From a virus (lineage: Duplodnaviria > Heunggongvirae > Uroviricota > Caudoviricetes), in the IMG/VR virus record IMGVR_UViG_2585427753_000011: a stretch of DNA of 23,703 nt. One strand, given 5' to 3'. Below, in pieces: positions 2,712 through 23,703 of this stretch (its first letter is position 1; every line of letters starts with the position of its first letter). The translations under genes were made by a program, and so were the position numbers. Under the pieces are notes generated by a model. The model saw only the letters and a program-made list of their open reading frames with translations. It was not told the DNA's origin and did not search any database.

Positions 2712-3010
2712 TGTCCTGTTCTCATTCAGTTGTATTACTGAATAACGCCTTAAAAATCGCCGTTATGAAAAATGGCGATTTGTCTCTTATCCAACTTTGT
2801 CTTGATAAAGAAAAACGCGACATCACTGAATCTGTTATCGCGATTTATCAGAGCGAATTAAACCTCCTGTCTGATGTGATCAATTTACTTGTGAAACGCG
2901 CTGTATTCCACAAGCAAATTTCCTCAGTGGATGAACTGACAAAATTAACGACAGAACTCGCCAGTTATTGCGCTGATGTATCCAGGAAACTTAACGATAA
3001 AAGGAGCTGA
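2708..3010 (+). CDS. Hypothetical early protein (P2 orf81-like)
   Basis: 100-aa ORF, translationally coupled to neighbours. Confidence 0.6.
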
Positions 3011-3012
3011 TA

Positions 3013-3237
3013 ATGCCGGACAACGTAGATTTTATTCAGGAACAACAGGCTGAATTACTGGAGCGCCAGATTAACGCGGCAAGGGTAAAACATTGCGGTG
3101 TTTCTTCGCTGGTTTGCGAAGAGTGTGACGCTCCAATACCTGCTGCCCGTCGTGCGGCTTATCCGTCAGCCACGCGTTGTGTTTCCTGTCAGTCAGTCTT
3201 TGAAGCAAAAAACAAACATTACCGGAGAACGGCATGA
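3013..3237 (+). CDS. TraR/DksA-family C4 zinc-finger protein (P2 orf82-like)
   Basis: 74 aa with CxxC...CxxC (CEECDAPIP...CVSCQ), typical of phage TraR/DksA-like zinc fingers. Confidence 0.75.
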   Translation: MPDNVDFIQEQQAELLERQINAARVKHCGVSSLVCEECDAPIPAARRAAYPSATRCVSCQSVFEAKNKHYRRTA

Positions 3238-3509
3238 GTATTCGTATTGAAATTGGCGAACGTTATGTCGTTACCAGTGACAGCTTTCAGTTTATTCTCC
3301 ACGAGAAAAAGAGAGCGGAAAGCGGTAAAAACGCCGGTCAGGAATGGCTGGCGGTGGTTGGTTATTACCCGAAATTAAGCCAGCTCGTTTCCGGCCTGAT
3401 GCATCACGATATTCTGACCGGAAGCGCAAAGTCTTTTGCTGATTTAAACGGGCAGGTTGAGCAACTCAGCAAGCGTTGTTCAGAGGCTTTTGGCTCATAT
3501 GGCCGTTAA
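3234..3509 (+). CDS. Hypothetical early protein (P2 orf83-like)
   Basis: 91-aa ORF; stop overlaps the A start. Confidence 0.6.
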   Translation: MSIRIEIGERYVVTSDSFQFILHEKKRAESGKNAGQEWLAVVGYYPKLSQLVSGLMHHDILTGSAKSFADLNGQVEQLSKRCSEAFGSYGR

Positions 3510-5778
3510 AGCCTCCGGGCGTTTTGTCCCTCCGTCAGCATTTGCCGCAGGCACCGGTAAGACGTTTACCGGTGCTTATGCATGGAACGCGCCACGCGAG
3601 GCCGTCGGGCGCGAAAGACCCCTTACACGTGACGAGATGCGTCAGGTGCAAGGTGTTTTATCCACGATTAACCGCCTGCCTTACTTTTTGCGTTCGCTGT
3701 TTACTTCACGCTATGACTACATCCGGCGCAATAAAAGCCCGGTGCACGGGTTTTATTTCCTCACATCCACTTTTCAGCGTCGTTTATGGCCGCGCATTGA
3801 GCGCGTGAATCAGCGCCATGAAATGAACACCGACGCGTCGTTACTGTTTCTGGCAGAGCGTGACCACTATGCGCGCCTGCCGGGAATGAATGACAAGGAG
3901 CTGAAAAAATTTGCCGCCCGTATCTCATCGCAGCTTTTCATGATGTATGAGGAACTCTGCGATGCCTGGGTGGATGCCCATGGCGAAAAAGAATCGCTGT
4001 TTACGGATGAGGCGCAGGCTCACCTGTATGGTCATGTTGCTGGCGCTGCACGTGCTTTCAATATTTCCCCGCTCTACTGGAAAAAATACCGTAAAGGACA
4101 GATGACCACGAGGCAGGCATATTCTGCCATTGCCCGCCTGTTTAACGATGAGTGGTGGACTCATCAGCTTAAAGGCCAGCGTATGCGCTGGCATGAGGCG
4201 TTACTGATTGCTGTCGGGGAGGTCAATAAAGACCGTTCTCCTTATGCCAGTAAACATGCCATTCGTGATGTGCGTGCACGCCGCCAGGCAAATCTGGAAT
4301 TTCTTAAATCGTGTGACCTTGAAAACAGGGAAACCGGCGAGCGCATCGACCTTATCAGTAAGGTGATGGGCAGTATTTCTAATCCTGAAATTCGCCGGAT
4401 GGAGCTGATGAACACCATTGCCGGTATTGAGCGTTACGCCGCAGCAGAGGGTGATGTGGGGATGTTTATCACGCTGACCGCGCCGTCAAAGTATCACCCG
4501 ACACGTCAGGTCGGAAAAGGCGAAAGTAAAACCGTCCAGCTAAATCACGGCTGGAACGATGAGGCATTTAATCCAAAGGATGCGCAGCGTTATCTCTGCC
4601 ATATCTGGAGCCTGATGCGCACGGCATTCAAGGATAATGATTTACAGGTCTACGGTTTGCGTGTCGTCGAGCCACACCACGACGGAACGCCGCACTGGCA
4701 TATGATGCTTTTTTGTAATCCACGCCAGCGTAACCAGATTATTGAAATCATGCGTCGCTATGCGCTCAAAGAGGATGGCGACGAAAGAGGAGCCGCGCGA
4801 AACCGTTTTCAGGCAAAACACCTTAACCGGGGCGGTGCTGCGGGATATATCGCGAAATACATCTCAAAAAACATCGACGGCTATGCACTGGATGGTCAGC
4901 TCGATAATGATACCGGTAGGCCGCTGAAAGACACAGCTGCGGCTGTTACCGCATGGGCGTCAACGTGGCGCATTCCGCAATTTAAAACGGTTGGTCTGCC
5001 GACAATGGGGGCTTACCGTGAACTACGCAAATTGCCTCGCGGCGTCAGCATTGCTGATGAGTTTGACGAGCGCGTCGAGGCTGCACGCGCCGCTGCAGAC
5101 AGTGGTGATTTTGCGTTGTATATCAGCGCGCAGGGCGGGGCAAATGTCCCGCGCGATTGTCAGACTGTCAGGGTCGCCCGTAGCCCGTCGGATGACGTTA
5201 ACGAGTACGAGGAAGAAGTCGAGAGAGTGGTCGGCATTTACGCGCCGCATCTCGGCGCGCGTCATATTCATATCACCAGAACGACGGACTGGCGCATTGT
5301 TCCGAAAGTGCCGGTCGTTGAGCCTTTGACTTTAAAAAGCGGCATCGCCGCGCCTCGGAGTCCTGTCAATAACTGTGGAAAGCTCACCGGTGGTGATACT
5401 TCGTTACCGGCTCCCACACCTTCTGAGCACGCCGCAGCAGTGCTTAATCTGGTTGATGACGGTGTTATTGAATGGAATGACCAGGAGGTCGTGAGGGCGC
5501 TCAGGGGCGCATTAAAACGAGGTCTGAGAAGACCAAACCGTCAGCAAAGAAACGGAAGCCCGTTAAAACAGCATGAAATGGCACCATCGGCCAGACTGAC
5601 CCGGTCAGAACGAATGCAAATTACCCGTATCCGCGTTGACCTTGCTCAGAACGGTATCAGGCCGCAGCGATGGGAGCTTGAGGCGCTGGCGCGTGGAGCA
5701 ATTGTAAATTACGACGGGAAAAAATTCACGTATCCAGTCGCTGATGAGTGGCGGGGATTCTCAGCAGTAATGGAGTGA
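3499..5778 (+). CDS. A: Replication initiation endonuclease A (rolling-circle HUH endonuclease)
   Basis: Track ORF 3457..5778; start set at ATG 3499 (MAVKASGRF...) by resemblance to the P2 gpA N-terminus and coupling to the upstream stop. Contains a histidine-rich HUH-type motif (HHDGTPHWHMMLF). Confidence 0.9.
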   Translation: MAVKASGRFVPPSAFAAGTGKTFTGAYAWNAPREAVGRERPLTRDEMRQVQGVLSTINRLPYFLRSLFTSRYDYIRRNKSPVHGFYFLTSTFQRRLWPRIERVNQRHEMNTDASLLFLAERDHYARLPGMNDKELKKFAARISSQLFMMYEELCDAWVDAHGEKESLFTDEAQAHLYGHVAGAARAFNISPLYWKKYRKGQMTTRQAYSAIARLFNDEWWTHQLKGQRMRWHEALLIAVGEVNKDRSPYASKHAIRDVRARRQANLEFLKSCDLENRETGERIDLISKVMGSISNPEIRRMELMNTIAGIERYAAAEGDVGMFITLTAPSKYHPTRQVGKGESKTVQLNHGWNDEAFNPKDAQRYLCHIWSLMRTAFKDNDLQVYGLRVVEPHHDGTPHWHMMLFCNPRQRNQIIEIMRRYALKEDGDERGAARNRFQAKHLNRGGAAGYIAKYISKNIDGYALDGQLDNDTGRPLKDTAAAVTAWASTWRIPQFKTVGLPTMGAYRELRKLPRGVSIADEFDERVEAARAAADSGDFALYISAQGGANVPRDCQTVRVARSPSDDVNEYEEEVERVVGIYAPHLGARHIHITRTTDWRIVPKVPVVEPLTLKSGIAAPRSPVNNCGKLTGGDTSLPAPTPSEHAAAVLNLVDDGVIEWNDQEVVRALRGALKRGLRRPNRQQRNGSPLKQHEMAPSARLTRSERMQITRIRVDLAQNGIRPQRWELEALARGAIVNYDGKKFTYPVADEWRGFSAVME

Positions 5779-6107: not shown

Positions 6108-6482
6108 ATGGGGAAGCAAGGCAAAGGCAAAGGCAACAAAAATCAGGTTAAGGTTACGTGGGCTCAGGCGTGGCGGGATGTAATGATAAGAGCCATGTCT
6201 AATGGTCAGTTGATACCTATTACCATCAGTATTATTTTAATGATTGCTGCATGGAGGTTACCAAAAACAGACTTGTCCAATTTAGCCTTCTCTATTGTTG
6301 ATGGCTTTAAGGAGCATTCCTTGGTTGGTTGGGCTATCTCGGTAATAGTGGGTTTGGCTTGGTCTGCACATGCGCGAATCATGAGGCGCTGTTTTAGTTC
6401 CGAGGCACAGAGAATCGGTAACGAGAAAACAAAGTATCAACAAAGACAGACCACTCAAGCCTTGGGTACAAGTGATAAATAG
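6108..6482 (+). CDS. Cargo gene 1: small two-transmembrane-helix protein with Lys/Gly-rich N-terminus
   Basis: 124-aa ORF; two hydrophobic segments (LIPITISIILMIAAW; LVGWAISVIVGLAWSAHA). Weak SD, so start is uncertain (alternative Met at 6183/6195). AT-rich relative to backbone. Confidence 0.6.
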   Translation: MGKQGKGKGNKNQVKVTWAQAWRDVMIRAMSNGQLIPITISIILMIAAWRLPKTDLSNLAFSIVDGFKEHSLVGWAISVIVGLAWSAHARIMRRCFSSEAQRIGNEKTKYQQRQTTQALGTSDK

Positions 6483-6502
6483 TTGTTTATTTAGGAGTTA
6501 TT

Positions 6503-7060
6503 ATGCTGACAGTGCTGTTTTATGTGCTGTTGGGTTTAGGCGCAGCACACTTCATTTACGAGCGAATCATTTTGCCGTCCATCCGACTTCATTATAGAAA
6601 CCAATTGTTTGCGCTTCGTGATGTCGCTAGGAGGAAAATCATTGATGGAGGTTCCGATACTTCCATGCAAGCGGCAACACTTGTGCATGACTCATTGAAT
6701 AACGCTATCAATAGATTGCATTTACTCACGTTGCCAAACAAATTTCGTGCTCAAAAGCGTATGGCAGAAAACCATGCAATAAGGCAGAAAATTCGGCGTG
6801 AGATAGATGTTTTCAAACGCTGTGATGATAGAGAAGTTGTTGATGTACTGTTTAAATCCGGTCGGATACTTGAAAATGTACTGTTATTCAATAGCTTAAT
6901 GTTATTGCTTTACATGTTTCCATTTGTCCTTGCTGTATGGTTCTGTGTTAGGGTCATAAAGACAGCAAGTAGTTTAGTACAGTGGGTCAAAGGAAGAGAT
7001 TTAGAGGAAGCTATAATGCTGCTTCCTGATACTCAGGTTGAAAAGGTTGTATACGCATAA
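6503..7060 (+). CDS. Cargo gene 2: membrane protein with N- and C-terminal hydrophobic helices
   Basis: 185-aa ORF with strong SD (AGGAG ~5 nt upstream); hydrophobic N-terminus (LTVLFYVLLGLGAAHFIY) and C-terminal segment (LLFNSLMLLLYMFPFVLAVWFCV) around a charged helical region; 20 nt after gene 1. Confidence 0.7.
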   Translation: MLTVLFYVLLGLGAAHFIYERIILPSIRLHYRNQLFALRDVARRKIIDGGSDTSMQAATLVHDSLNNAINRLHLLTLPNKFRAQKRMAENHAIRQKIRREIDVFKRCDDREVVDVLFKSGRILENVLLFNSLMLLLYMFPFVLAVWFCVRVIKTASSLVQWVKGRDLEEAIMLLPDTQVEKVVYA

Positions 7061-7088
7061 AAATCACCCCTTAGGGGGTGATTTTTTT
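7061..7088 (+). terminator. Rho-independent terminator ending the two-gene membrane operon
   Basis: Stem ATCACCCC (7063-7070) / GGGGTGAT (7075-7082), loop TTAG, followed by a T-run; immediately after the stop at 7060. Confidence 0.8.
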
Positions 7089-7299
7089 ACATGACTTTTG
7101 ATTAGCTGACATTGTAAATCCGCATGTATCAGATGCATTGTTTTGCATGTGGAAATGGGTGTTTTCACTGCCAGCTATCGCTACATGTAGCAAAAACACG
7201 GGCTTAATAAGAAATCATTCTGCCATAAGGCATAACTTCCCCGCGTGCTCAGGTATTGACGTCATAGATATGGATCTTTTTTAATCAAGGTATGGTATT

Positions 7300-8247
7300 A
7301 TGAAGATATTTATTAGTTGGTCAGGTCAGGACAGCCTGGAGATAGCAAAAGTATTACGGGATTGGATACCGAATGTTATTCAAGTAGCTGAGCCGTACGT
7401 ATCAGCGGAAGATATTGATAAAGGCACTCGCTGGGCGACTGATATATCAAAGGAACTTGATGACTCTTCTTATGGGATTATTTGCCTTACAAAAAATAAT
7501 ATTAATGCACCGTGGATAAATTTTGAGGCGGGTGCTTTAGGTAAAAAGGTTGATAAGAGCCGGGTTAGTCCTTTCTTGTTTAAAATTAAACCATCTGAGA
7601 TAACAGGCCCAATATTACAATTCCAGTATACTCGTTCGGATGATAAGAACGATATTTTGAAGTTGATGTTGTCAATAAATAATCAAGCAGGATTTTTGAC
7701 TGAAGAACGCTTAACTAAAGCTTTCGAGCAATGGTGGCCAAGTTTAGAGCGTGAGTTAGATAACATTCAAGATATTAACCCTGTAGATAAAGATTCCACT
7801 AAAAAAACAAAAGGTGATTCGACTTCTGAGATACAAAATCTTTCCAAAATTGTTGAAAGTTTGCTGGATATTAGCCGAACAAATCACCAATTATTGCGTG
7901 ATCCAGCATCATTATTGCCAGAAGAATATGTTAGCAAAATAATAAACAGGGAAGGGCGTAAAGAAACTGTTTTAAAAATTGTAGCTTCTGATTTATTATC
8001 CATGCATCATTCACTAATTCGTGTAAAAAGAAGATTTATTCGTCGTGGTATTGATGAAACATCTAGGAGCGAGTTAATTGAATCATTAAATAAAATGATA
8101 ATGGATTGTTCTAGAGTAATCGCTCACTTAGATAATTATTGTGGGGCTTCATCAAACAATATGTTCAATAGTGCGCTTAGATTGCGGACCAGAAATTTAA
8201 TTGACATGATGGATGAGGAGGATGCAGAACGGGATGAAATGGAATAA
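7300..8247 (+). CDS. Cargo gene 3: TIR-domain protein with uncharacterised C-terminal helical domain
   Basis: 315 aa. N-terminal ~130 aa has TIR hallmarks: KIFISWSGQDS first strand, GIICLT strand, and W-x-x-F-E-A-G motif (WINFEAGAL) aligning by eye with the catalytic-Glu region of bacterial TIR NADases. C-terminal ~170 aa has no motif I recognise. Own transcription unit. Confidence 0.75.
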   Translation: MKIFISWSGQDSLEIAKVLRDWIPNVIQVAEPYVSAEDIDKGTRWATDISKELDDSSYGIICLTKNNINAPWINFEAGALGKKVDKSRVSPFLFKIKPSEITGPILQFQYTRSDDKNDILKLMLSINNQAGFLTEERLTKAFEQWWPSLERELDNIQDINPVDKDSTKKTKGDSTSEIQNLSKIVESLLDISRTNHQLLRDPASLLPEEYVSKIINREGRKETVLKIVASDLLSMHHSLIRVKRRFIRRGIDETSRSELIESLNKMIMDCSRVIAHLDNYCGASSNNMFNSALRLRTRNLIDMMDEEDAERDEME

Positions 8248-9000: not shown

Positions 9001-9918
9001 ATGGATTATACGAGCTATATAATAGGACAGCTTCAGGTTGAGGATATTATTGATGCAATTAAAGGCGTTAATAATACTAATGTCATAAAAGATTATGTGC
9101 TGCCTGTAGTATTACCAATTATATCTTCTGTGCTGAGTTACTTTATTGCAACTAGGTTGTTTTATCGGCAGGAGGACCTTAAAGCACAAAGAAGAAAGGT
9201 AAGCGTTGTAAATAAATGTATTTATGACTACTTTTCTGCAATGACAACGTTGTTGCAAATTAAAGGGAATTATTATGGTGGGGTAAGTATAAGTGAAAAT
9301 CCTATCGAGAGGGCTTTAGCTTTTCCTGTTGTGGTTTTTTCTGGTGCTCCTCTATCATCAGATTTAAGTGAGTTGGCCTGTATATTGAGTCAAAAGGGAG
9401 TAGGGAATAATAGAGAGCCAGCAAAGACTACTAACTGGGGGGATGCTTTTGCTGTTAGTGATATAGCAAGAAGGTTTAACAGCCTATTGGCTGCATTAAA
9501 TGTTAGGAATGATTTTGATGACACCTATAGAGGAATGATTATTGAATCAACAGGTTCACCTTTGCCTACGATGCGTTTTAAAAATGATGATATTGTTAAT
9601 GCTATAGGTAGTAATAAGGCAGCTTATTACATTGATATTACTGAGCAAATAATGATTATGATAGATGTTTTGTTGCTTGATATTAATCTGTTGCTCAAAG
9701 AGTTGCCATTGTATGCTGAATCGCTGTTTGACAAAAGAGTAATGCAAGAAGATTCAGGGATTCTTAAATTCAATGATTTGCACGAACGTTTTCCTCTACT
9801 TATGAAACCTGTAACGCCACCTTCGATTAAACTCATGTCTGATTATTTGGGGTACAGTGAAGATGAGATCTTACGACGCTATCCATACCCGTTCTTTAAT
9901 ATGCATGATTGTGAATGA
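9001..9918 (+). CDS. Cargo gene 5: 305-aa protein with one N-terminal transmembrane helix, no recognisable domain
   Basis: Starts 2 nt after the lipoprotein stop (translational coupling). Hydrophobic segment VLPVVLPIISSVLSYFIATRLF near the N-terminus; AT-rich codon usage. Confidence 0.7.
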   Translation: MDYTSYIIGQLQVEDIIDAIKGVNNTNVIKDYVLPVVLPIISSVLSYFIATRLFYRQEDLKAQRRKVSVVNKCIYDYFSAMTTLLQIKGNYYGGVSISENPIERALAFPVVVFSGAPLSSDLSELACILSQKGVGNNREPAKTTNWGDAFAVSDIARRFNSLLAALNVRNDFDDTYRGMIIESTGSPLPTMRFKNDDIVNAIGSNKAAYYIDITEQIMIMIDVLLLDINLLLKELPLYAESLFDKRVMQEDSGILKFNDLHERFPLLMKPVTPPSIKLMSDYLGYSEDEILRRYPYPFFNMHDCE

Positions 9919-10198: not shown

Positions 10199-11233
10199 TC
10201 AGCCGTTGTCAGTGTCCAGTGAGTAGTTTTTAAAGCGGATGACCTCCTGACCGAGCCAGCCGTTTATTTCCCGAATCCTGTCCTGTAACGGGATAAGTTC
10301 ATTGCGGACAAAGACCTTTGCCACTTTCTCAATATCGCCCAGCGACCCGACGTTTTCCGGCTTGCCACCCATCAACTGAAAGGGGATGCGGTGCGCGTCC
10401 AGCAGGTCAGCGGCGCTGGCTTTTTTGATATTAAAAAAATCGTCCTTCGTGGCCACTTCACTGAGCGGGATAATTTTAATGCCGTCGGCTTTTCCCTGTG
10501 GGGCATAGAGAAACAGGTTTTTAAAGTTATTGCGGCCTTTCGACTTCACCATGTTTTCGCGGAGCATTTCGATATCGTTGCGATCCTGCACGGCATCAGT
10601 GACGTACATGATGTATCCGGCATGTGCGCCGTTTTCGTAATACTTGCGGCGGAACAGCGTGGCCGACTCATTCAGCCAGGCAGAGTTAAGGGCGCTGAGA
10701 TATTCCGGCAGACCGTACAGCTCCTGATTAATATCCGGCTCCAGCAGGTGAAACACGGAGCCGGGCGCGAAAGGTGTCGGCTCGTTGAAGGACGGCACCC
10801 ACCAGTAAACATCCTCCTCCACGCCACGGCGGGGATATTTTGCCGGGGAGGGTTCCAGTCTGATGACCTTACCGGTGGTGCTGTAACGCTTTTCCAGAAA
10901 CGCATTACCGAATACCAGAAAATCCAGCACAAAGCGGCTGAAATCCTGCTGAGAAAGCCACGGGTGTGGGATAAACGTTGAGGCCAGAATGTTACGTTTG
11001 ACGTAAATCGGTGAGCTGTGATGCACGGCAGCACGCAGGCTTTTTGCCAGACCGGTAAAGCTGACTGGTGGCTCATACCATCTGCCGTTACTGATGCACT
11101 CGACGTAATCCAGAATGTCACGGCGGTCGAGTACCGGCACCGGCTCACCAAAGGTGAATGCCTCCATTTTCGGGGCGCTGGCGGTCATTTTTTTTGCCGC
11201 AGGTTGCGGTGTTTTCCCTTTTTTCTTGCTCAT
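10199..11233 (-). CDS. Q: Portal protein Q
   Basis: 344 aa, same length as P2 gpQ and recognisable sequence (MSKKKGKTPQPAAKK...); adjacent to cos. Confidence 0.9.
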   Translation of the reverse strand: MSKKKGKTPQPAAKKMTASAPKMEAFTFGEPVPVLDRRDILDYVECISNGRWYEPPVSFTGLAKSLRAAVHHSSPIYVKRNILASTFIPHPWLSQQDFSRFVLDFLVFGNAFLEKRYSTTGKVIRLEPSPAKYPRRGVEEDVYWWVPSFNEPTPFAPGSVFHLLEPDINQELYGLPEYLSALNSAWLNESATLFRRKYYENGAHAGYIMYVTDAVQDRNDIEMLRENMVKSKGRNNFKNLFLYAPQGKADGIKIIPLSEVATKDDFFNIKKASAADLLDAHRIPFQLMGGKPENVGSLGDIEKVAKVFVRNELIPLQDRIREINGWLGQEVIRFKNYSLDTDNG

Positions 11234-11979
11234 CAGTAAAACTCCAGAATGGTGGATGTCAGCGGGGTGCTGATACCGGCGGTGAGTGGCTCATTTAACA
11301 GGGCGTGCATGGTCGCCCAGGCGAGGTCGGCGTGGCTGGCTTCCTCGCTACGGCTGGCCTCATAGGTGGCGCTGCGTCCGCTGCTGGTCATGGTCTTGCG
11401 GATAGCCATGAACGAGCTGGTGATGTCGGTGGCGCTGCGTCCGCTGCTGGTCATGGTCTTGCGGATAGCCATGAACGAGCTGGTGATGTCGGTGGCGCTG
11501 CGTCCGCTGCTGGTCATGGTCTTGCGGATAGCCATGAACGAGCTGGTGATGTCGGTGGCGCTGCGTCCGCTGCTGGTCATGGTCTTGCGGATAGCCATGA
11601 ACGAGCTGGTGATGTCGGTGGCGCTGCGTCCGCTGCTGGTCATGGTCTTGCGGATAGCCATGAACGAGCTGGTGATGTCGGTGGCGCTGACGTCATATTC
11701 CAGACAGCCACGGCGGATGACGTCTTTTGCCTTGAGCACCATTGCGGTTTTCATTTCCGGCGTGTAGCGGATATCGCGTGCGGCGGGATAGAACGAGCGC
11801 ACGAGCTGGAACACGCCGACACCGAGGCCGGTGGCATCAATTCCGATGTATTCGACGTTGTATTTTTCGGTGAGTTTGCGGATGGATTCCGCCTGAGTGG
11901 CAAAGTCCATGCCTTTCCACTGGTGACGCTCAAGTATTCTGAATTTACCTCCGGCCACCACCGGCGGTGCCAGCACCAC
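11233..11979 (-). pseudogene. P: Terminase large subunit P, C-terminal remnant with internal tandem-repeat expansion
   Basis: 248-aa frame that opens at GTG with no upstream gene context. Reads as the C-terminal part of P2 terminase ATPase/nuclease, plus four extra 21-aa repeat copies. N-terminal ~400 aa absent; upstream sequence runs straight into endolysin K. Confidence 0.8.
11368..11682. repeat. Perfect 63-bp tandem repeat, 5 copies, in-frame within the terminase remnant
   Basis: GGCGCTGCGT recurs at 11368, 11431, 11494, 11557, 11620, then partially at 11683; on the minus strand this encodes SATDITSSFMAIRKTMTSSGR x5. Copies are identical by eye. Confidence 0.9.
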
Positions 11980-11995
11980 GCATCCGGCGCTGGCC

Positions 11996-13292: not shown

Positions 13293-13437
13293 CCCGGAGA
13301 CGAACGGCGATTTAAGTGCCGATATCCGGCAGCTTGAGAACGCGCTGGCACGTTGTGCCAGCCAGGTAAAAATGATTAAACACTGTCAGGACGAAAACGA
13401 TGCTCAAACCCGACAGCCTGCGCAGGGCGCTGACTGA
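13147..13437 (+). CDS. lysC: LysC (Rz1-like outer-membrane lipoprotein spanin), out of frame across the lysB 3' end
   Basis: Track ORF 12937..13437; real start is ATG 13147 (MKTKIFAAGMALTCLMLCAG-C, lipobox), giving 96 aa as in P2 LysC; Pro-rich mature region. Confidence 0.8.
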   Translation: MKTKIFAAGMALTCLMLCAGCTSAPPAPTPVIVANACPKVSLCPMPGSDPETNGDLSADIRQLENALARCASQVKMIKHCQDENDAQTRQPAQGAD

Positions 13438-13867
13438 TGCCGTCACGGTGCTGAAAACTAACCCCGATATGCTGCGGATATTCGTGGATAACGGGAGTAT
13501 TGCCTCCACACTGGCGGCGTCGTTGTCATTCGAAAAGCGTTACACGCTCAATGTCATTGTGACCGACTTTACCGGTGATTTTGACCTGCTCATCGTGCCG
13601 GTGCTGGCGTGGCTGCGGGAAAATCAGCCCGACATCATGACCACCGACGAAGGCCAGAAAAAGGGCTTCACGTTTTATGCAGACATCAACAATGACAGCA
13701 GCTTTGATATCAGTATCAGCCTGATGCTGACCGAGCGCACGCTGGTCAGTGAGGTTGACGGTGCGCTGCATGTGAAGAATATCCCGGAACCTCCGCCGCC
13801 GGAGCCAGTCAATCGCCCGATGGAGCTTTATATCAATGGTGAACTGGTGAGCAAGTGGGATGAATGA
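13400..13867 (+). CDS. R: Tail completion protein R
   Basis: 155 aa, P2 gpR length and position. Confidence 0.85.
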   Translation: MLKPDSLRRALTDAVTVLKTNPDMLRIFVDNGSIASTLAASLSFEKRYTLNVIVTDFTGDFDLLIVPVLAWLRENQPDIMTTDEGQKKGFTFYADINNDSSFDISISLMLTERTLVSEVDGALHVKNIPEPPPPEPVNRPMELYINGELVSKWDE

Positions 13868-14312
13868 GTTTAAGCGTTTTGAAGACCGACTGACCGGACT
13901 GATTGAATCGCTGTCACCGTCTGGGCGTCGGCGACTGAGTGCAGAACTGGCGAAACGTCTGCGGCAGAGTCAGCAGCGTCGGGTGATGGCACAGAAAGCT
14001 CCGGACGGCACACCCTACGCACCACGCCAGCAGCAGAGCGCCAGAAAAAAGACCGGTCGCGTTAAGCGAAAAATGTTTGCGAAACTTATCACCAGTCGTT
14101 TTTTGCATATCCGCGCCAGCCCTGAACAGGCATCAATGGAGTTTTACGGCGGGAAGTCACCGAAAATCGCCAGTGTGCATCAGTTCGGTCTGTCGGAAGA
14201 AACCCGGAAAGACGGTAAGAAAATTGATTATCCGGCGCGTCCTCTGCTCGGCTTTACCGGTGAGGATGTGCAGATGATTGAAGAGATTATCCTGGCTCAC
14301 CTTGAGCGTTAG
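13860..14312 (+). CDS. S: Tail completion protein S
   Basis: 150 aa, P2 gpS length and position. Confidence 0.85.
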   Translation: MNEFKRFEDRLTGLIESLSPSGRRRLSAELAKRLRQSQQRRVMAQKAPDGTPYAPRQQQSARKKTGRVKRKMFAKLITSRFLHIRASPEQASMEFYGGKSPKIASVHQFGLSEETRKDGKKIDYPARPLLGFTGEDVQMIEEIILAHLER

Positions 14313-14342
14313 TTTTATCCAGACAGAGGCTGATGCGCAATT

Positions 14343-14377
14343 AAACATTGAGCGGCCATGCTGGTCGCTCAATGTTT
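14343..14377. terminator. Bidirectional terminator hairpin between convergent S and the orf30-position gene
   Basis: 12-bp stem AAACATTGAGCG (14343-14354) / CGCTCAATGTTT (14366-14377), 11-nt loop; between stop codons at 14310-14312 (+) and 14384-14386 (-). Confidence 0.6.
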
Positions 14378-14383
14378 AGAGGT

Positions 14384-15169
14384 TTATGAGTGATTTTTAT
14401 TTGATGCTTTGTATTCTAAAACCTTCTTATTGGCGTAAAAGAATTTTGTATATGACAGGAATATAACCAGACCTGAAGTGAAATAGACGAGGGATAGTAT
14501 TAATAATGCTTTTTTGCGACTGTTATTATCTTTAATCTCCAGGCTTAACCATTCGGAGTCCTCCTCGTTTAGCTGTAAGAGCTTATTGCAGGCGATTTCA
14601 GGAAGTGTGTCTTTTATAAATACGTTTTGCAGTCTCTTGCAATCGGCAAGGCTATAAGTTTTATTAAATTCAACTGCTTTATTTTTGAAGGATAAAAGAA
14701 CTTTGTCACTATAAACATAGTACATCATGTTTTTATATGGTATGCCTATGGCATCCCTTACTATAACGGATTGTTCGTTGTGTATGTAACATGCGAGGAG
14801 AATGTAAAAAATACTGGCCAGAATTACAATTATTGTTTTAATTATGTGTGGTGGTTTTGTTATGTCACCCCAGATGCGAGTAAGGAAAAAATACGATGTT
14901 TTTAGTTTTCCATCAATCAGTCCCTGCTGTATCATTCTCACATTTTCAATGCCTGATACATTGATTCCGTTAATTATTTTAAATAGTTGAATGTCGCGCC
15001 ACTCGCGGTCAAGTCTTTTTAATTTTTTGTCTGAATATCCAAAATTGAAATAATGTGCAATAAGCCTCATAAGGTTACTTTTACCAAAGCTAAAAAATGC
15101 TAATACTGCAAAGCTACAAAGGAAAAAAACGATTAGCCCCCACACATTAGTCACATTATAGCTGACCAT
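14384..15169 (-). CDS. AT-rich moron at the P2 orf30 position: membrane protein with ~3 TM helices, unknown function
   Basis: 261-aa ORF antisense to the late operons between S and V; hydrophobic segments near aa 9-28, 111-131 and 228-247; Lys/Asn/Ile/Phe-rich. Confidence 0.7.
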   Translation of the reverse strand: MVSYNVTNVWGLIVFFLCSFAVLAFFSFGKSNLMRLIAHYFNFGYSDKKLKRLDREWRDIQLFKIINGINVSGIENVRMIQQGLIDGKLKTSYFFLTRIWGDITKPPHIIKTIIVILASIFYILLACYIHNEQSVIVRDAIGIPYKNMMYYVYSDKVLLSFKNKAVEFNKTYSLADCKRLQNVFIKDTLPEIACNKLLQLNEEDSEWLSLEIKDNNSRKKALLILSLVYFTSGLVIFLSYTKFFYANKKVLEYKASNKNHS

Positions 15170-15252
15170 TACGCTCTCCTTGAATGTTGTCTGGTAGTTC
15201 TACAAATGAATCCAGATAGCATAACTTTTATATATTGTGCAATCTCACATGC

Positions 15253-15888
15253 ATGAACACTCTCGCAAATATTCAGGAACTCGCGCGCGCACTGCGCAAC
15301 ATGATTCGCACCGGCATTATCGTCGAAACCGACCTTAACGCCGGTCGCTGCCGCGTGCAGACCGGCGGCATGTGCACCGACTGGCTTCAGTGGCTGACCC
15401 ATCGCGCCGGTCGTTCGCGCACATGGTGGGCACCTTCCGTGGGGGAACAGGTGCTGATTCTGTCCGTGGGCGGTGAACTCGACACGGCGTTTGTTCTGCC
15501 GGGGATTTATTCCGGCGATAATCCCGCGCCGTCTGCGTCGGCGGATGCCCTGCATATCCGTTTCCCTGACGGGGCGGTGATTGAGTATGAACCCGAAACC
15601 AGTGCGCTCACGGTAAGCGGAATTAAAACGGCCAGCGTGACGGCTTCCGGTTCTGTTACTGCCACTGTGCCGGTGGTCATGGTGAAAGCGTCAACCCGCA
15701 TCACCCTGGACACACCGGAGGTGGTCTGCACCAACAGGCTGATTACCGGCACGCTGGAAGTGCAGAAGGGCGGGACGATGCGCGGCAACATTGAACACAC
15801 CGGCGGTGAACTCTCATCAAACGGTAAGGTACTGCATACCCATAAACACCCCGGCGACAGCGGCGGCACAACCGGGAGTCCTCTATGA
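15253..15888 (+). CDS. V: Baseplate spike protein V
   Basis: Track ORF 15235..15888; start set at ATG 15253 (MNTLANIQELARA...) to give the 211-aa P2 gpV; stop overlaps W start. Confidence 0.9.
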   Translation: MNTLANIQELARALRNMIRTGIIVETDLNAGRCRVQTGGMCTDWLQWLTHRAGRSRTWWAPSVGEQVLILSVGGELDTAFVLPGIYSGDNPAPSASADALHIRFPDGAVIEYEPETSALTVSGIKTASVTASGSVTATVPVVMVKASTRITLDTPEVVCTNRLITGTLEVQKGGTMRGNIEHTGGELSSNGKVLHTHKHPGDSGGTTGSPL

Positions 15889-20476: not shown

Positions 20477-21070
20477 ATGTTTACTAAGCGACGATTAAAA
20501 AATATTAACTGGGAGGCAAGTTCAGTGATTCTTGCTATGGTTCTCTTTGTTGGAAATATATTTTATACAAATCATCGTGATGATATAAGCATGGAGGCTG
20601 AGAGGGACAGTATCAGAACAATGTTTGCATATGAAATCGCTAATAACCATCGCGCTCTCACTTTTCTTGATAAAACGAGACATATTGGCTTTGACGAAAA
20701 TTCGGAGCATTTTGTTGGCGAGCCTTTTGCCATTAATGTCAAATCATTAGGGGGACCTCGCTTACAGATTGCATTAAACCAGACTGATAAAGTGTTTAAA
20801 TCCTACTTCGGCGAATTAAGTAAGCTTGATAAAGAGGATGTTACTCTTCTTATGGACTATTACCATGAGCAAAGCATCCTGCTGGAGCGTGTAAAATCTA
20901 CGTTACAGAAGATGAAAAGTGGTAATGATATTAAAGTTGATATTGATGGTTGCTTATTAGAAGAACACTTCATGAATGAGCTTAATCTTTCTAATATTTT
21001 GCTTAAACGCTATAGCTATTTATTATCACAACACGCTAAGGAACATAAAACAAAAGATTTACATAATTGA
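20477..21070 (+). CDS. AT-rich moron at the P2 Z/fun position: 197-aa protein with one N-terminal TM helix, unknown function
   Basis: ORF between G and the FI remnant, where P2 carries Z/fun; AT-rich flanks; hydrophobic segment SSVILAMVLFVGNIFY near the N-terminus. Confidence 0.65.
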   Translation: MFTKRRLKNINWEASSVILAMVLFVGNIFYTNHRDDISMEAERDSIRTMFAYEIANNHRALTFLDKTRHIGFDENSEHFVGEPFAINVKSLGGPRLQIALNQTDKVFKSYFGELSKLDKEDVTLLMDYYHEQSILLERVKSTLQKMKSGNDIKVDIDGCLLEEHFMNELNLSNILLKRYSYLLSQHAKEHKTKDLHN

Positions 21071-21399: not shown

Positions 21400-21513
21400 A
21401 TGAGTGACTATCATCACGGCGTGCAGGTGCTGGAGATTAACGACGGCACCCGCGTCATTTCCACCGTATCCACAGCCATTGTCGGCATGGTCTGCACGGC
21501 TAGCCTCCCGTAA
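21400..21513 (+). pseudogene. FI: Tail sheath FI, N-terminal fragment (~35 codons) ending at a deletion junction
   Basis: ATG 21400 with GGAG SD encodes [35 protein letters not shown], which I recognise as the P2 sheath N-terminus; frame then hits TAA at 21511-21513. Confidence 0.75.
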
Positions 21514-22264
21514 CAGGCTGGAAGCCAGTGTCGCTCCGTCACTGGCCGGAATTAAAATCCCGCACATCGACCAGTCGCAGGAGTCCGATGCGAAATTCCT
21601 GACCCGTCTTGCTGAACGCAACGGCGGTGAGGTGTCGGTAAAAATGGGAAAACTGCTGTTTCTCAAAGCGGGGCAGGGGGGGACGGTCAGCGGTAAAAAA
21701 ATCCCGCAGATTACCATCACCCGCAGCGACGGCGACCGTCATCATTTTGCGATTGCTGACCGTGGAGCCTACACAGGCGTAACGGCAAAGTGGTTACACA
21801 CCAAAGACCCGAAGCCGCAAAAGCAGAAGGTAAAACTGAAACGCAAAAAGAAAGAGAAACACCTGCGCGCACTGGAGCACCCGAAAGCGAAACCGGTCAC
21901 GCAGAAGAAAGAGCCAAAAGTACCGGAAGCGCGCGAAGGTGAATACATGGCCGGTGAGGCTGACAACGTTTTTGCCCTGACCACGGTATATGCCACGAAA
22001 GCACAGGCCATGCGCGCCGCTCAGGCGAAGTGGGATAAACTGCAACGGGGTGTTGCGGAGTTCTCCATCAGCCTGGCTACTGGTCGGGCAGATATTTACA
22101 CGGAAACGCCGGTCAGAGTGTCAGGCTTTAAGCGCGTCATAGACGAGCAGGACTGGACAATCACTAAGGTGACACATTTTCTGAATAATAGCGGCTTCAC
22201 GACGTCCCTGGAGCTTGAGGTCAGGCTTTCTGATGTGGAGTACGAAACAGAAGATGATGAGTGA
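21506..22264 (+). pseudogene. D: Tail protein D, C-terminal ~250 aa, N-terminally truncated
   Basis: Track ORF 21404..22264 is an artefactual frame over the FI fragment; from about [22 protein letters not shown]... it reads as the C-terminal part of P2 gpD, ending ...EYETEDDE. No start codon or SD. Confidence 0.75.
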
Positions 22265-22719: not shown

Positions 22720-22800
22720 ATCCTCAATTTGCCTGCTGCTTAATGCATTGCAGATGATTTGCTTCCGTTATACTACCGTCAGTTGATAGCGGGAGTATTT

Positions 22801-23703
22801 ATGAATCAATCTTATGGACGGCTGGTCAGTCGGGCGGCGATTGCTGCGACGGCGATGGCTTCGCTGCTATTGCTGATTAAAATTTTTGCATGGTGGTATA
22901 CCGGGTCGGTGAGTATTCTCGCCGCGCTGGTGGATTCGCTGGTGGATATCGGCGCGTCGTTGACGAATTTACTGGTGGTGCGATATTCCCTGCAACCTGC
23001 CGACGATAATCACTCGTTTGGTCACGGTAAAGCTGAGTCCCTCGCGGCGCTGGCGCAAAGTATGTTTATCTCCGGTTCGGCACTATTCCTGTTTTTGACG
23101 GGTATTCAACATCTGGTATCTCCAACACCGATGACAGATCCAGGCGTCGGGGTTATCGTGACAATTGTGGCGCTAATTTGTACGATTATCCTTGTCTCGT
23201 TTCAGCGTTGGGTGGTGCGCCGGACGCAAAGCCAGGCGGTGCGGGCTGATATGCTACATTACCAGTCTGATGTTATGATGAACGGCGCAATTCTGCTGGC
23301 GCTGGGGTTGTCCTGGTACGGCTGGCATCGCGCCGATGCTCTGTTTGCATTGGGGATCGGCATCTATATTTTATATAGCGCGTTACGCATGGGATATGAG
23401 GCGGTACAGTCATTACTGGATCGCGCATTGCCTGATGAGGAACGGCAAGAAATTATTGATATCGTGACTTCCTGGCCGGGTGTTAGCGGCGCTCACGATC
23501 TTCGCACGCGGCAGTCAGGGCCGACCCGCTTTATTCAGATTCATTTGGAAATGGAAGACTCTCTGCCTTTGGTTCAGGCACATATGGTGGCGGATCAGGT
23601 AGAGCAGGCTATTTTACGGCGTTTTCCGGGATCGGATGTGATTATCCATCAGGACCCCTGTTCCGTCGTACCCAGGGAGGGTAAACGGTCTATGCTTTCA
23701 TAA
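22801..23703 (+). CDS. fieF: Host cation-diffusion-facilitator iron/zinc efflux transporter FieF (YiiP)
   Basis: Track ORF 22759..23703; start at ATG 22801 gives 300 aa [25 protein letters not shown]..., which I recognise as E. coli-type FieF; six-TM N-terminal domain plus cytoplasmic C-terminal domain. Confidence 0.9.

Follow-up and report, generated by a model that had tools for sequence, protein, structure and literature searches.

Small inner-membrane proteins that bring about superinfection exclusion are encoded by phages or prophages such as P22 (SieA), T4 (Imm) and HK97 (gp15), and the last of these is a moron located within the tail-gene region. Orf30 of phage P2 resembles them in being a small phage-encoded inner-membrane protein, and resembles HK97 gp15 also in its position among tail genes, but it is larger, it bears a conserved domain predicted to be cytoplasmic, and it shows no Pfam or PHROG similarity to them. 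Membrane proteins of the claudin-fold and SURF1 types may also be named among the closest known systems. Within P2 itself the other AT-rich nonessential genes are old, tin and fun, all of them anti-phage (PMC8594841). Like orf30, old, tin and fun(Z) were horizontally acquired and lie at variable slots of P2-like phages, but they occupy other slots, specify other proteins and have demonstrated anti-phage phenotypes (PMC3091744, PMC8594841). The orf30 locus is one of three regions of P2-like phages in which horizontally acquired genes are found (PMC3091744), and Orf30 lay outside the set of P2 genes tested in BASEL (PMC8594841). It is the one AT-rich accessory gene of this model phage that lacks a function in the searchable literature, where neither functional nor expression data for Orf30 were found.

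The window (the whole stretch of viral DNA analysed here, 23,703 nucleotides in length) houses, between the late genes S and V and antisense to both, an open reading frame of 261 codons with an ATG start, exactly where a prior sequence-only reading had placed an AT-rich gene of this length (Table 1). Its GC content is 0.34, compared to approximately 0.55–0.60 on either side, and the chance of 261 stop-free codons arising at this base composition is about 2e-9. The encoded protein is 98.9% identical over residues 1–261 to P2 Orf30 (AAD03281.1, GenBank AF063097 / NC_001895; tblastn E 1e-157), from which it differs by three amino acids, and 2.9 kb of window DNA surrounding the gene is 98% identical to P2. 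The two genes share the same S/V slot, the antisense orientation, the O-operon terminator and the PV/Ogr region. On these sequence comparisons the feature is almost certainly orf30 of a P2-type (Peduovirus) prophage, and the P2 orf30 position suggested in the prior reading turns out to be occupied by orf30 itself. The gene is already annotated in the P2 genome record, where it is labelled 'nonessential', and in E. coli genomes RefSeq labels it 'hypothetical protein'; the feature is not new, and given the identity to Orf30 its finding is a rediscovery. The window copy differs from that of P2 in residing in a prophage devoid of head genes and of the tail genes from the sheath gene to D. What is new here is the definition of the protein family, the pattern of its occurrence at a fixed slot, a model of topology and structure, evidence of selection, and a remote link to the Pfam family DUF6216.

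Table 1 Features in and around the gpS/gpV slot of the window
Feature	Position	Strand	Basis
gpR, flanking gene	13400-13867		Pfam
gpS, tail completion / virion morphogenesis, left flank of slot	13860..14312	+	Pfam PF05069 Phage_tail_S, E 4.9e-44
S-V cassette, 938 bp: probable terminator hairpin, orf30, Ogr site and PV promoter region	14315..15252	.	alignment with fiAA91-ss
Hairpin where the 3' ends of S and orf30 converge, probable bidirectional terminator	14341..14378	.	RNA folds
orf30 CDS, predicted 261-aa three-TM inner-membrane protein	14384..15169	-	ORF, P2 Orf30 match, PHROG 2407, omega, AF2
Shine-Dalgarno sequence AAGGAG, 6 nt upstream of the orf30 ATG	15176..15181	-	read from sequence
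Ogr (late activator) site of PV, beginning 15 nt from the orf30 start codon	15184..15211	+	P2 annotation 10239-10266, offset +4945
gpV, baseplate spike, right flank of slot	15253..15888	+	Pfam Phage_base_V and Phage_spike; P2 V coordinates

The sequence-only reading regarded the S/V position as a classical variable insertion point of P2, and this is borne out both by earlier work (PMC3091744) and by comparison of the slot between phages. In fiAA91-ss (L017) the slot is empty, 64 bp of unrelated sequence replacing the whole cassette; local alignment with the window shows homology ending at 14314 and resuming at 15253. In phage R18C the slot contains instead an unrelated 741-bp ORF, which was considered as a diverged orf30 and rejected, being on the sense strand and giving an hhalign probability of only 0.5%. 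Of 5426 complete E. coli genomes, 1582 have the S-V region and 460 of these carry orf30 at a coverage of at least 80%, that is, the gene is present in about 8% of all the genomes and absent from some 70% of E. coli P2-like loci. The S-V span, among the matches listed, is 1155 bp where orf30 is lacking and 2029 bp where it is present. The differing slot contents of fiAA91-ss, E. coli prophages and R18C establish that the slot is truly variable, and extra cargo occurs in it elsewhere, as described below; the recent surveys of P2 hotspots that were checked do not single it out. The gene has the characteristics of a moron in that its base composition is unlike that of its surroundings (0.34 against 0.55–0.60, with divergent alleles also at about 0.34), it is present or absent between near-identical phages (938 bp against 64 bp; 460/1582), and it is followed by a probable terminator of its own, a hairpin with a z-score of -5.5 on the orf30 strand and a short U-tract. 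The best explanation is that orf30 constitutes a horizontally acquired, AT-rich accessory cassette of the gpS/gpV slot that is dispensable for phage growth.

An orf30 profile retrieved 44 representatives in an exhaustive HMMER search of 1.84 billion representative proteins, mostly full-length and 250–270 aa long, the family size of about 44 referring to representatives at 50% identity. A word-indexed search of 5.8 billion proteins gave five clusters only. The named members, all of which are annotated as hypothetical, come without exception from Enterobacterales (Escherichia, Enterobacter, Yersinia, Pectobacterium, Sodalis, Gibbsiella and Serratia). In eleven independent P2-like loci the S/V slot houses a member that runs antisense to the late genes and shares 18–32% identity with Orf30 (P0006, P0008, P0026, P0023, P0032, P0021, P0028 and the members at four IMG/VR loci). 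An IMG/VR scan with the single protein P0042 gave no match. In loci L006, L008 and L013 the proteins gpV, gpR and gpJ are 72–84% identical to their counterparts in the window, compared to only 24–32% for the orf30 homologue, whose gene has a GC content of about 34% in all three. These searches show orf30 to be, as far as sequence relationships can define it, part of a small family restricted to Enterobacterales and tied to the S/V slot. The gpS proteins of the same three loci are themselves only 47–49% identical to that of the window, so the block of recombination or divergence around the slot seems to include gene S.

Several of these loci carry further cargo. Proteins encoded in the slot beside the family member include one with DUF4062 and an ORF6N protein, the latter matching PDC-S05, a candidate family of PADLOC, weakly (best E 9e-07); elsewhere the additional cargo is a 264-aa membrane protein. 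In the P2-like contig L034 the S/V slot (2965–3899) contains a gene for a 180-aa protein with an HExxH motif, overlapping a gene for a 133-aa lipoprotein that matches both Pfam DUF7480 and the NCBIfam model NF045617 ('putative T6SS immunity periplasmic lipoprotein'), the latter with 71.8 bits against a cut-off of 43. This toxin/immunity-like pair lies directly upstream of the orf30-family gene and on the same strand. A prophage remnant (L025) has tandem paralogues, P0021 and P0044 (8001–8771 and 8900–9658; hhalign probability 100%), adjoining gpV. Members outside P2 contexts fall into three groups. In one of them (L023 6530–8777, and likewise L024 and L009–L012) the member is in a small chromosomal islet, not a prophage, between rplS and aroF/tyrA, where it is preceded by a CAP12/PCTIR TIR-domain gene and small ORFs and followed by a gene for a GNAT acetyltransferase. 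In another (L002 66–752, also L003 and L004, on contigs of less than 2 kb) the gene of the distant member P0017 and that of a DsbA-family thioredoxin are transcribed divergently, a neighbour that attracts attention in view of the invariant, predicted periplasmic cysteine pair of the family. In the third the member is at the end of a contig beside a gene for an OMP beta-barrel protein.

The earlier reading could put no name to the product, and the databases are of like mind. Orf30 has no match in Pfam or NCBIfam, and none among the families of PADLOC-DB 2.0 at E ≤ 1; five of its distant relatives likewise match no PADLOC-DB 2.0 family at E ≤ 0.01. The PDB sequence/profile search gave only a chance-level match (E 0.084), no functional fold match was obtained in PDB or BFVD, and no superinfection-exclusion, abortive-infection, holin or immunity family was matched in Pfam, PHROGs or NCBIfam. 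The colicin-K immunity family of Pfam was matched at chance level (E 0.11) by one family member only. Orf30 does align end to end with PHROG 2407 (E 2.7e-147, residues 1–261 on profile positions 1–261 of 261), which covers only the close P2-type alleles and is labelled 'unknown function'. Neither sequence nor structure relates Orf30 to a structural or assembly protein, and the gene is missing from many viable P2-like phages.

A more distant connection is offered by P0028, the Sodalis member from the S/V slot, which passes the gathering threshold of Pfam DUF6216 (PF19723) with 28.9 against 27.3 bits over its full length (positions 10–265 of the 270-position model). DUF6216 is matched at E ≤ 1, weakly, by 10 of 29 family members; neither the window protein nor P2 Orf30 reaches the gathering threshold or matches even at E ≤ 1. 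The link of Orf30 itself to DUF6216 is therefore transitive, through those relatives that do match. On profile evidence the orf30 family is a remote branch of this uncharacterised Pfam family and not a scored member of it. A word-indexed homology search with P0028 returned the query alone, and in the literature searched DUF6216 is mentioned by a single, unrelated paper.

The sequence-only reading expected about three transmembrane (TM) helices, and this expectation holds: Kyte-Doolittle analysis locates three hydrophobic segments, at residues ~9–28, ~108–130 and ~219–241, and AlphaFold2 models them as long helices. The model (pLDDT 83.9, pTM 0.73, from a 29-sequence alignment) comprises, in order, TM1, a small helical domain (~48–94), TM2, a four-strand sheet with two helices (~141–198), and a long helix that includes TM3. 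Across the family, loop 1 bears a net charge of +4.9, loop 2 one of -0.9 and the C-terminal tail one of +2.5, and loop 2 has exactly two cysteine residues at equivalent positions in all 29 aligned members. The charge pattern and the cysteine pair together point to an N-out/C-in topology, in which the N-terminus would be periplasmic and the short basic C-tail cytoplasmic. The helical loop 1 (29–107, about 80 aa) would accordingly face the cytoplasm; it carries the most conserved motif of the family, D-x-Q-L-F-[RK]-x-x-N-G-[IV]-N-V ... D-A ... G-x-L. The alpha/beta loop 2 (131–218, about 85 aa) would face the periplasm, and is probably locked by a disulfide between Cys177 and Cys194. Conserved residues that can be named are Q61, G68, D76, G87, C177/C194 and I212.

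Selection was assessed on seven close alleles of orf30, 80–99% identical, none of which contains an indel or a stop. The gene has an omega of 0.47 (bootstrap 95% CI 0.32–0.68), compared to 0.05–0.14 for R, S, V and W, and in dN it surpasses S, R and W by a factor of about ten. It is under purifying selection, but is evolving approximately ten-fold faster than its neighbours. The constraint is unevenly distributed, with omega 0.29 (CI 0.19–0.45) for the non-TM loops and 1.13 (CI 0.62–2.3) for the TM helices. Positive selection on the helices was considered and is unsupported, the confidence interval spanning 1; the value fits relaxed constraint. It follows from these values and from the intact alleles that orf30 is functional, that its soluble loops carry the function, and that the helices serve mainly as anchors. 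The lack of constraint on the helices also argues weakly against a role as a pore or channel.

Of the two flanking elements proposed in the sequence-only reading, a bidirectional terminator and a short divergent promoter region, each holds in part. The hairpin between S and orf30 folds with -32.5 and -22.4 kcal/mol on the two strands (71-nt context) and z-scores of -6.0 and -5.5, none of 200 shuffled sequences being equally stable when both strands were folded, and it coincides with the 'putative rho-independent terminator for O operon' of the P2 record (9397–9433). It fails a simple terminator scan, because only UUU follows the stem. The hairpin, stable on both strands, is a probable bidirectional terminator. 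On the other side, the start codons of orf30 and V are separated by 83 bp, and in this interval PV is well founded on P2 annotation. A promoter for orf30 is more conjectural: in the P2-type alleles no acceptable -35/-10 pair of the sigma-70 consensus is present on the minus strand in 15170–15292, while more distant alleles have plausible pairs. The CACAACA Ogr half-site is retained upstream of every divergent allele examined. Given that in P2-type alleles the Ogr site begins so close to the orf30 start codon, any promoter for orf30 must overlap PV. It is tempting to suggest that the prophage would transcribe orf30, antisense to the silent late operons, for as long as PV is silent, and that late transcription from the Ogr-dependent PV would then occlude the overlapping start of orf30 and shut it off. 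It may also be that the AT-rich DNA of orf30 is silenced in the lysogen.

On the best-supported reading Orf30 would be a prophage-expressed envelope protein, and its most likely role would be to exclude or abort infection by other phages, a reading which we favour tentatively and put a little below an even chance. The sequence-only reading had suggested an exclusion or toxin-like membrane protein, a guess that the present findings neither contradict nor demonstrate. Orf30 would act at the cell envelope to the benefit of the lysogen, its periplasmic domain meeting either the incoming phage or a host factor for phage entry, while the conserved loop in the cytoplasm would couple to a host partner that is itself conserved. 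This interpretation draws on analogy with the other AT-rich morons of P2, on the patchy presence of the gene and the extreme divergence of its alleles at a fixed address, on the tandem paralogues, on the two constrained extramembrane domains, one on each side of the membrane, and on the few neighbours of conflict type. Against it, old, tin and fun already account for the classical interference phenotypes of P2 lysogens; no PADLOC, exclusion or defence family is matched, and no fold; the P2-type gene lacks an upstream sigma-70 consensus and is possibly silenced; a conserved cytoplasmic domain is atypical of simple injection blockers; and the associations with neighbours are few and mixed, with some 70% of E. 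coli P2-like loci lacking the gene altogether. A wider proposal, which is possible but which we hold with slightly less assurance, is that the orf30 / DUF6216-like family represents an unrecognised single-gene envelope system directed against phages or competitors, the characteristic resident of a third accessory hotspot (S/V) of P2-like phages, whose alleles have diversified in place to less than 20% identity and whose fold would be new, its three TM helices being combined with a conserved signalling loop in the cytoplasm and with a periplasmic sensor domain locked by a disulfide.

Other roles can be envisaged for such a protein. Orf30 might be a factor of lysogenic conversion unrelated to phages, altering some process of the host inner membrane or periplasm such as envelope stress, transport, surface polysaccharide handling or colonisation fitness, and retained for its benefit to the lysogen. 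Its membrane location with constrained cytoplasmic and periplasmic domains would suit such a role, as would the lack of a match to any defence model and the existence of members outside prophages, among housekeeping genes or beside a DsbA-family or OMP beta-barrel gene. Very fast divergence, patchy presence and tandem paralogues fit conflict genes better, however, and Orf30 does not resemble known conversion enzymes such as Gtr or Oac. We consider this role unlikely, if not remote. Pore-forming colicins are typically countered by immunity proteins that are small, polytopic and located in the inner membrane, with fast-varying TM helices, and Orf30 might analogously be an orphan, prophage-borne immunity protein against a membrane-targeting toxin, whether a pore-forming bacteriocin or a T6SS or CDI effector. 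A TM omega of about 1.1 alongside constrained loops would agree with this, and so would the HExxH protein and putative T6SS-immunity lipoprotein encoded directly upstream of the member in L034. But that lipoprotein is already the likely immunity partner there, no cognate toxin gene is found beside orf30 in P2 or at most other loci, the TM omega does not significantly exceed 1, and the sole match to a colicin-immunity family is the chance-level one of a single member. An orphan immunity function therefore appears improbable.

The position of orf30 between the lysis and tail-completion genes and the baseplate genes raises the idea of an accessory late or lytic function that is dispensable in the laboratory, for example in lysis timing, in membrane events during DNA ejection, or in tail assembly; its product is a predicted membrane protein, as are the holin and LysA, and no sigma-70 promoter of its own was found. 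Yet orf30 is antisense to both late operons, with a terminator intervening, it is AT-rich foreign DNA annotated as nonessential, and its product shows no similarity to holin, antiholin or spanin families; most of the close relatives, viable phages themselves, lack the gene, and the family also occurs outside prophages. We accordingly give little credence to a part in the lytic cycle. Small multi-TM proteins are common as abortive-infection effectors, and a membrane toxin of this kind, killing or depolarising the cell when triggered, either alone or together with a sensor encoded elsewhere, would account for the TIR-like neighbours of family members, DUF4062 in L020 and the CAP12/PCTIR TIR protein in L023. 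Such neighbours are seen in only two of approximately 14 contexts, though, orf30 stands alone in P2 and at most loci, and conservation is lowest in the very TM helices that would have to line a pore; a toxic effector is thus a poor prospect too. Should Orf30 turn out to act in exclusion or defence, P2-like phages would gain a third defence-type slot and DUF6216 its first function; if not, orf30 will be an ordinary prophage hypothetical. With a defined family at a fixed address, a topology model and named residues, its function is now directly testable.

The element in which the window copy resides is a decayed P2-like prophage that retains int and the A gene. While orf30 is intact in this remnant, which has no head and tail-sheath genes, R, S, V, W, J, I, H and G are intact too, so that the retention of orf30 says little by itself. 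In the old/tin slot (6108–8247, plus strand) three AT-rich genes match the PADLOC families 2TM-TIR (E 2e-58), 1TM-TIR (E 3e-75) and TIR-TM (E 2e-118); together they form a three-gene TIR defence system already known from P2-like prophages, and they are followed by a 305-aa ORF (9001–9918) with no match in Pfam, PADLOC or NCBIfam. Comparison with the intact prophage of E. coli LD93-1 reveals a junction at ~11989–11992, where the remaining 3' part of the terminase gene P runs directly into the endolysin gene K. About 5.3 kb is missing, comprising the genes O, N, M, L, X and Y together with the 5' ends of P and K. Inside the P remnant, at 11365–11694, is a 63-bp tandem repeat of 5.2 copies, 99% identical, which is single-copy in the intact prophage. 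The Z/fun slot, after the tail-fibre assembly gene G, holds a 197-aa AT-rich ORF (20477–21070) with no family match. Beyond this slot only a C-terminal fragment of gpD is left (21404–22264), which indicates that the tail genes FI to U are missing, and a host cation-efflux (fieF-like) gene comes next at 22759–23703.
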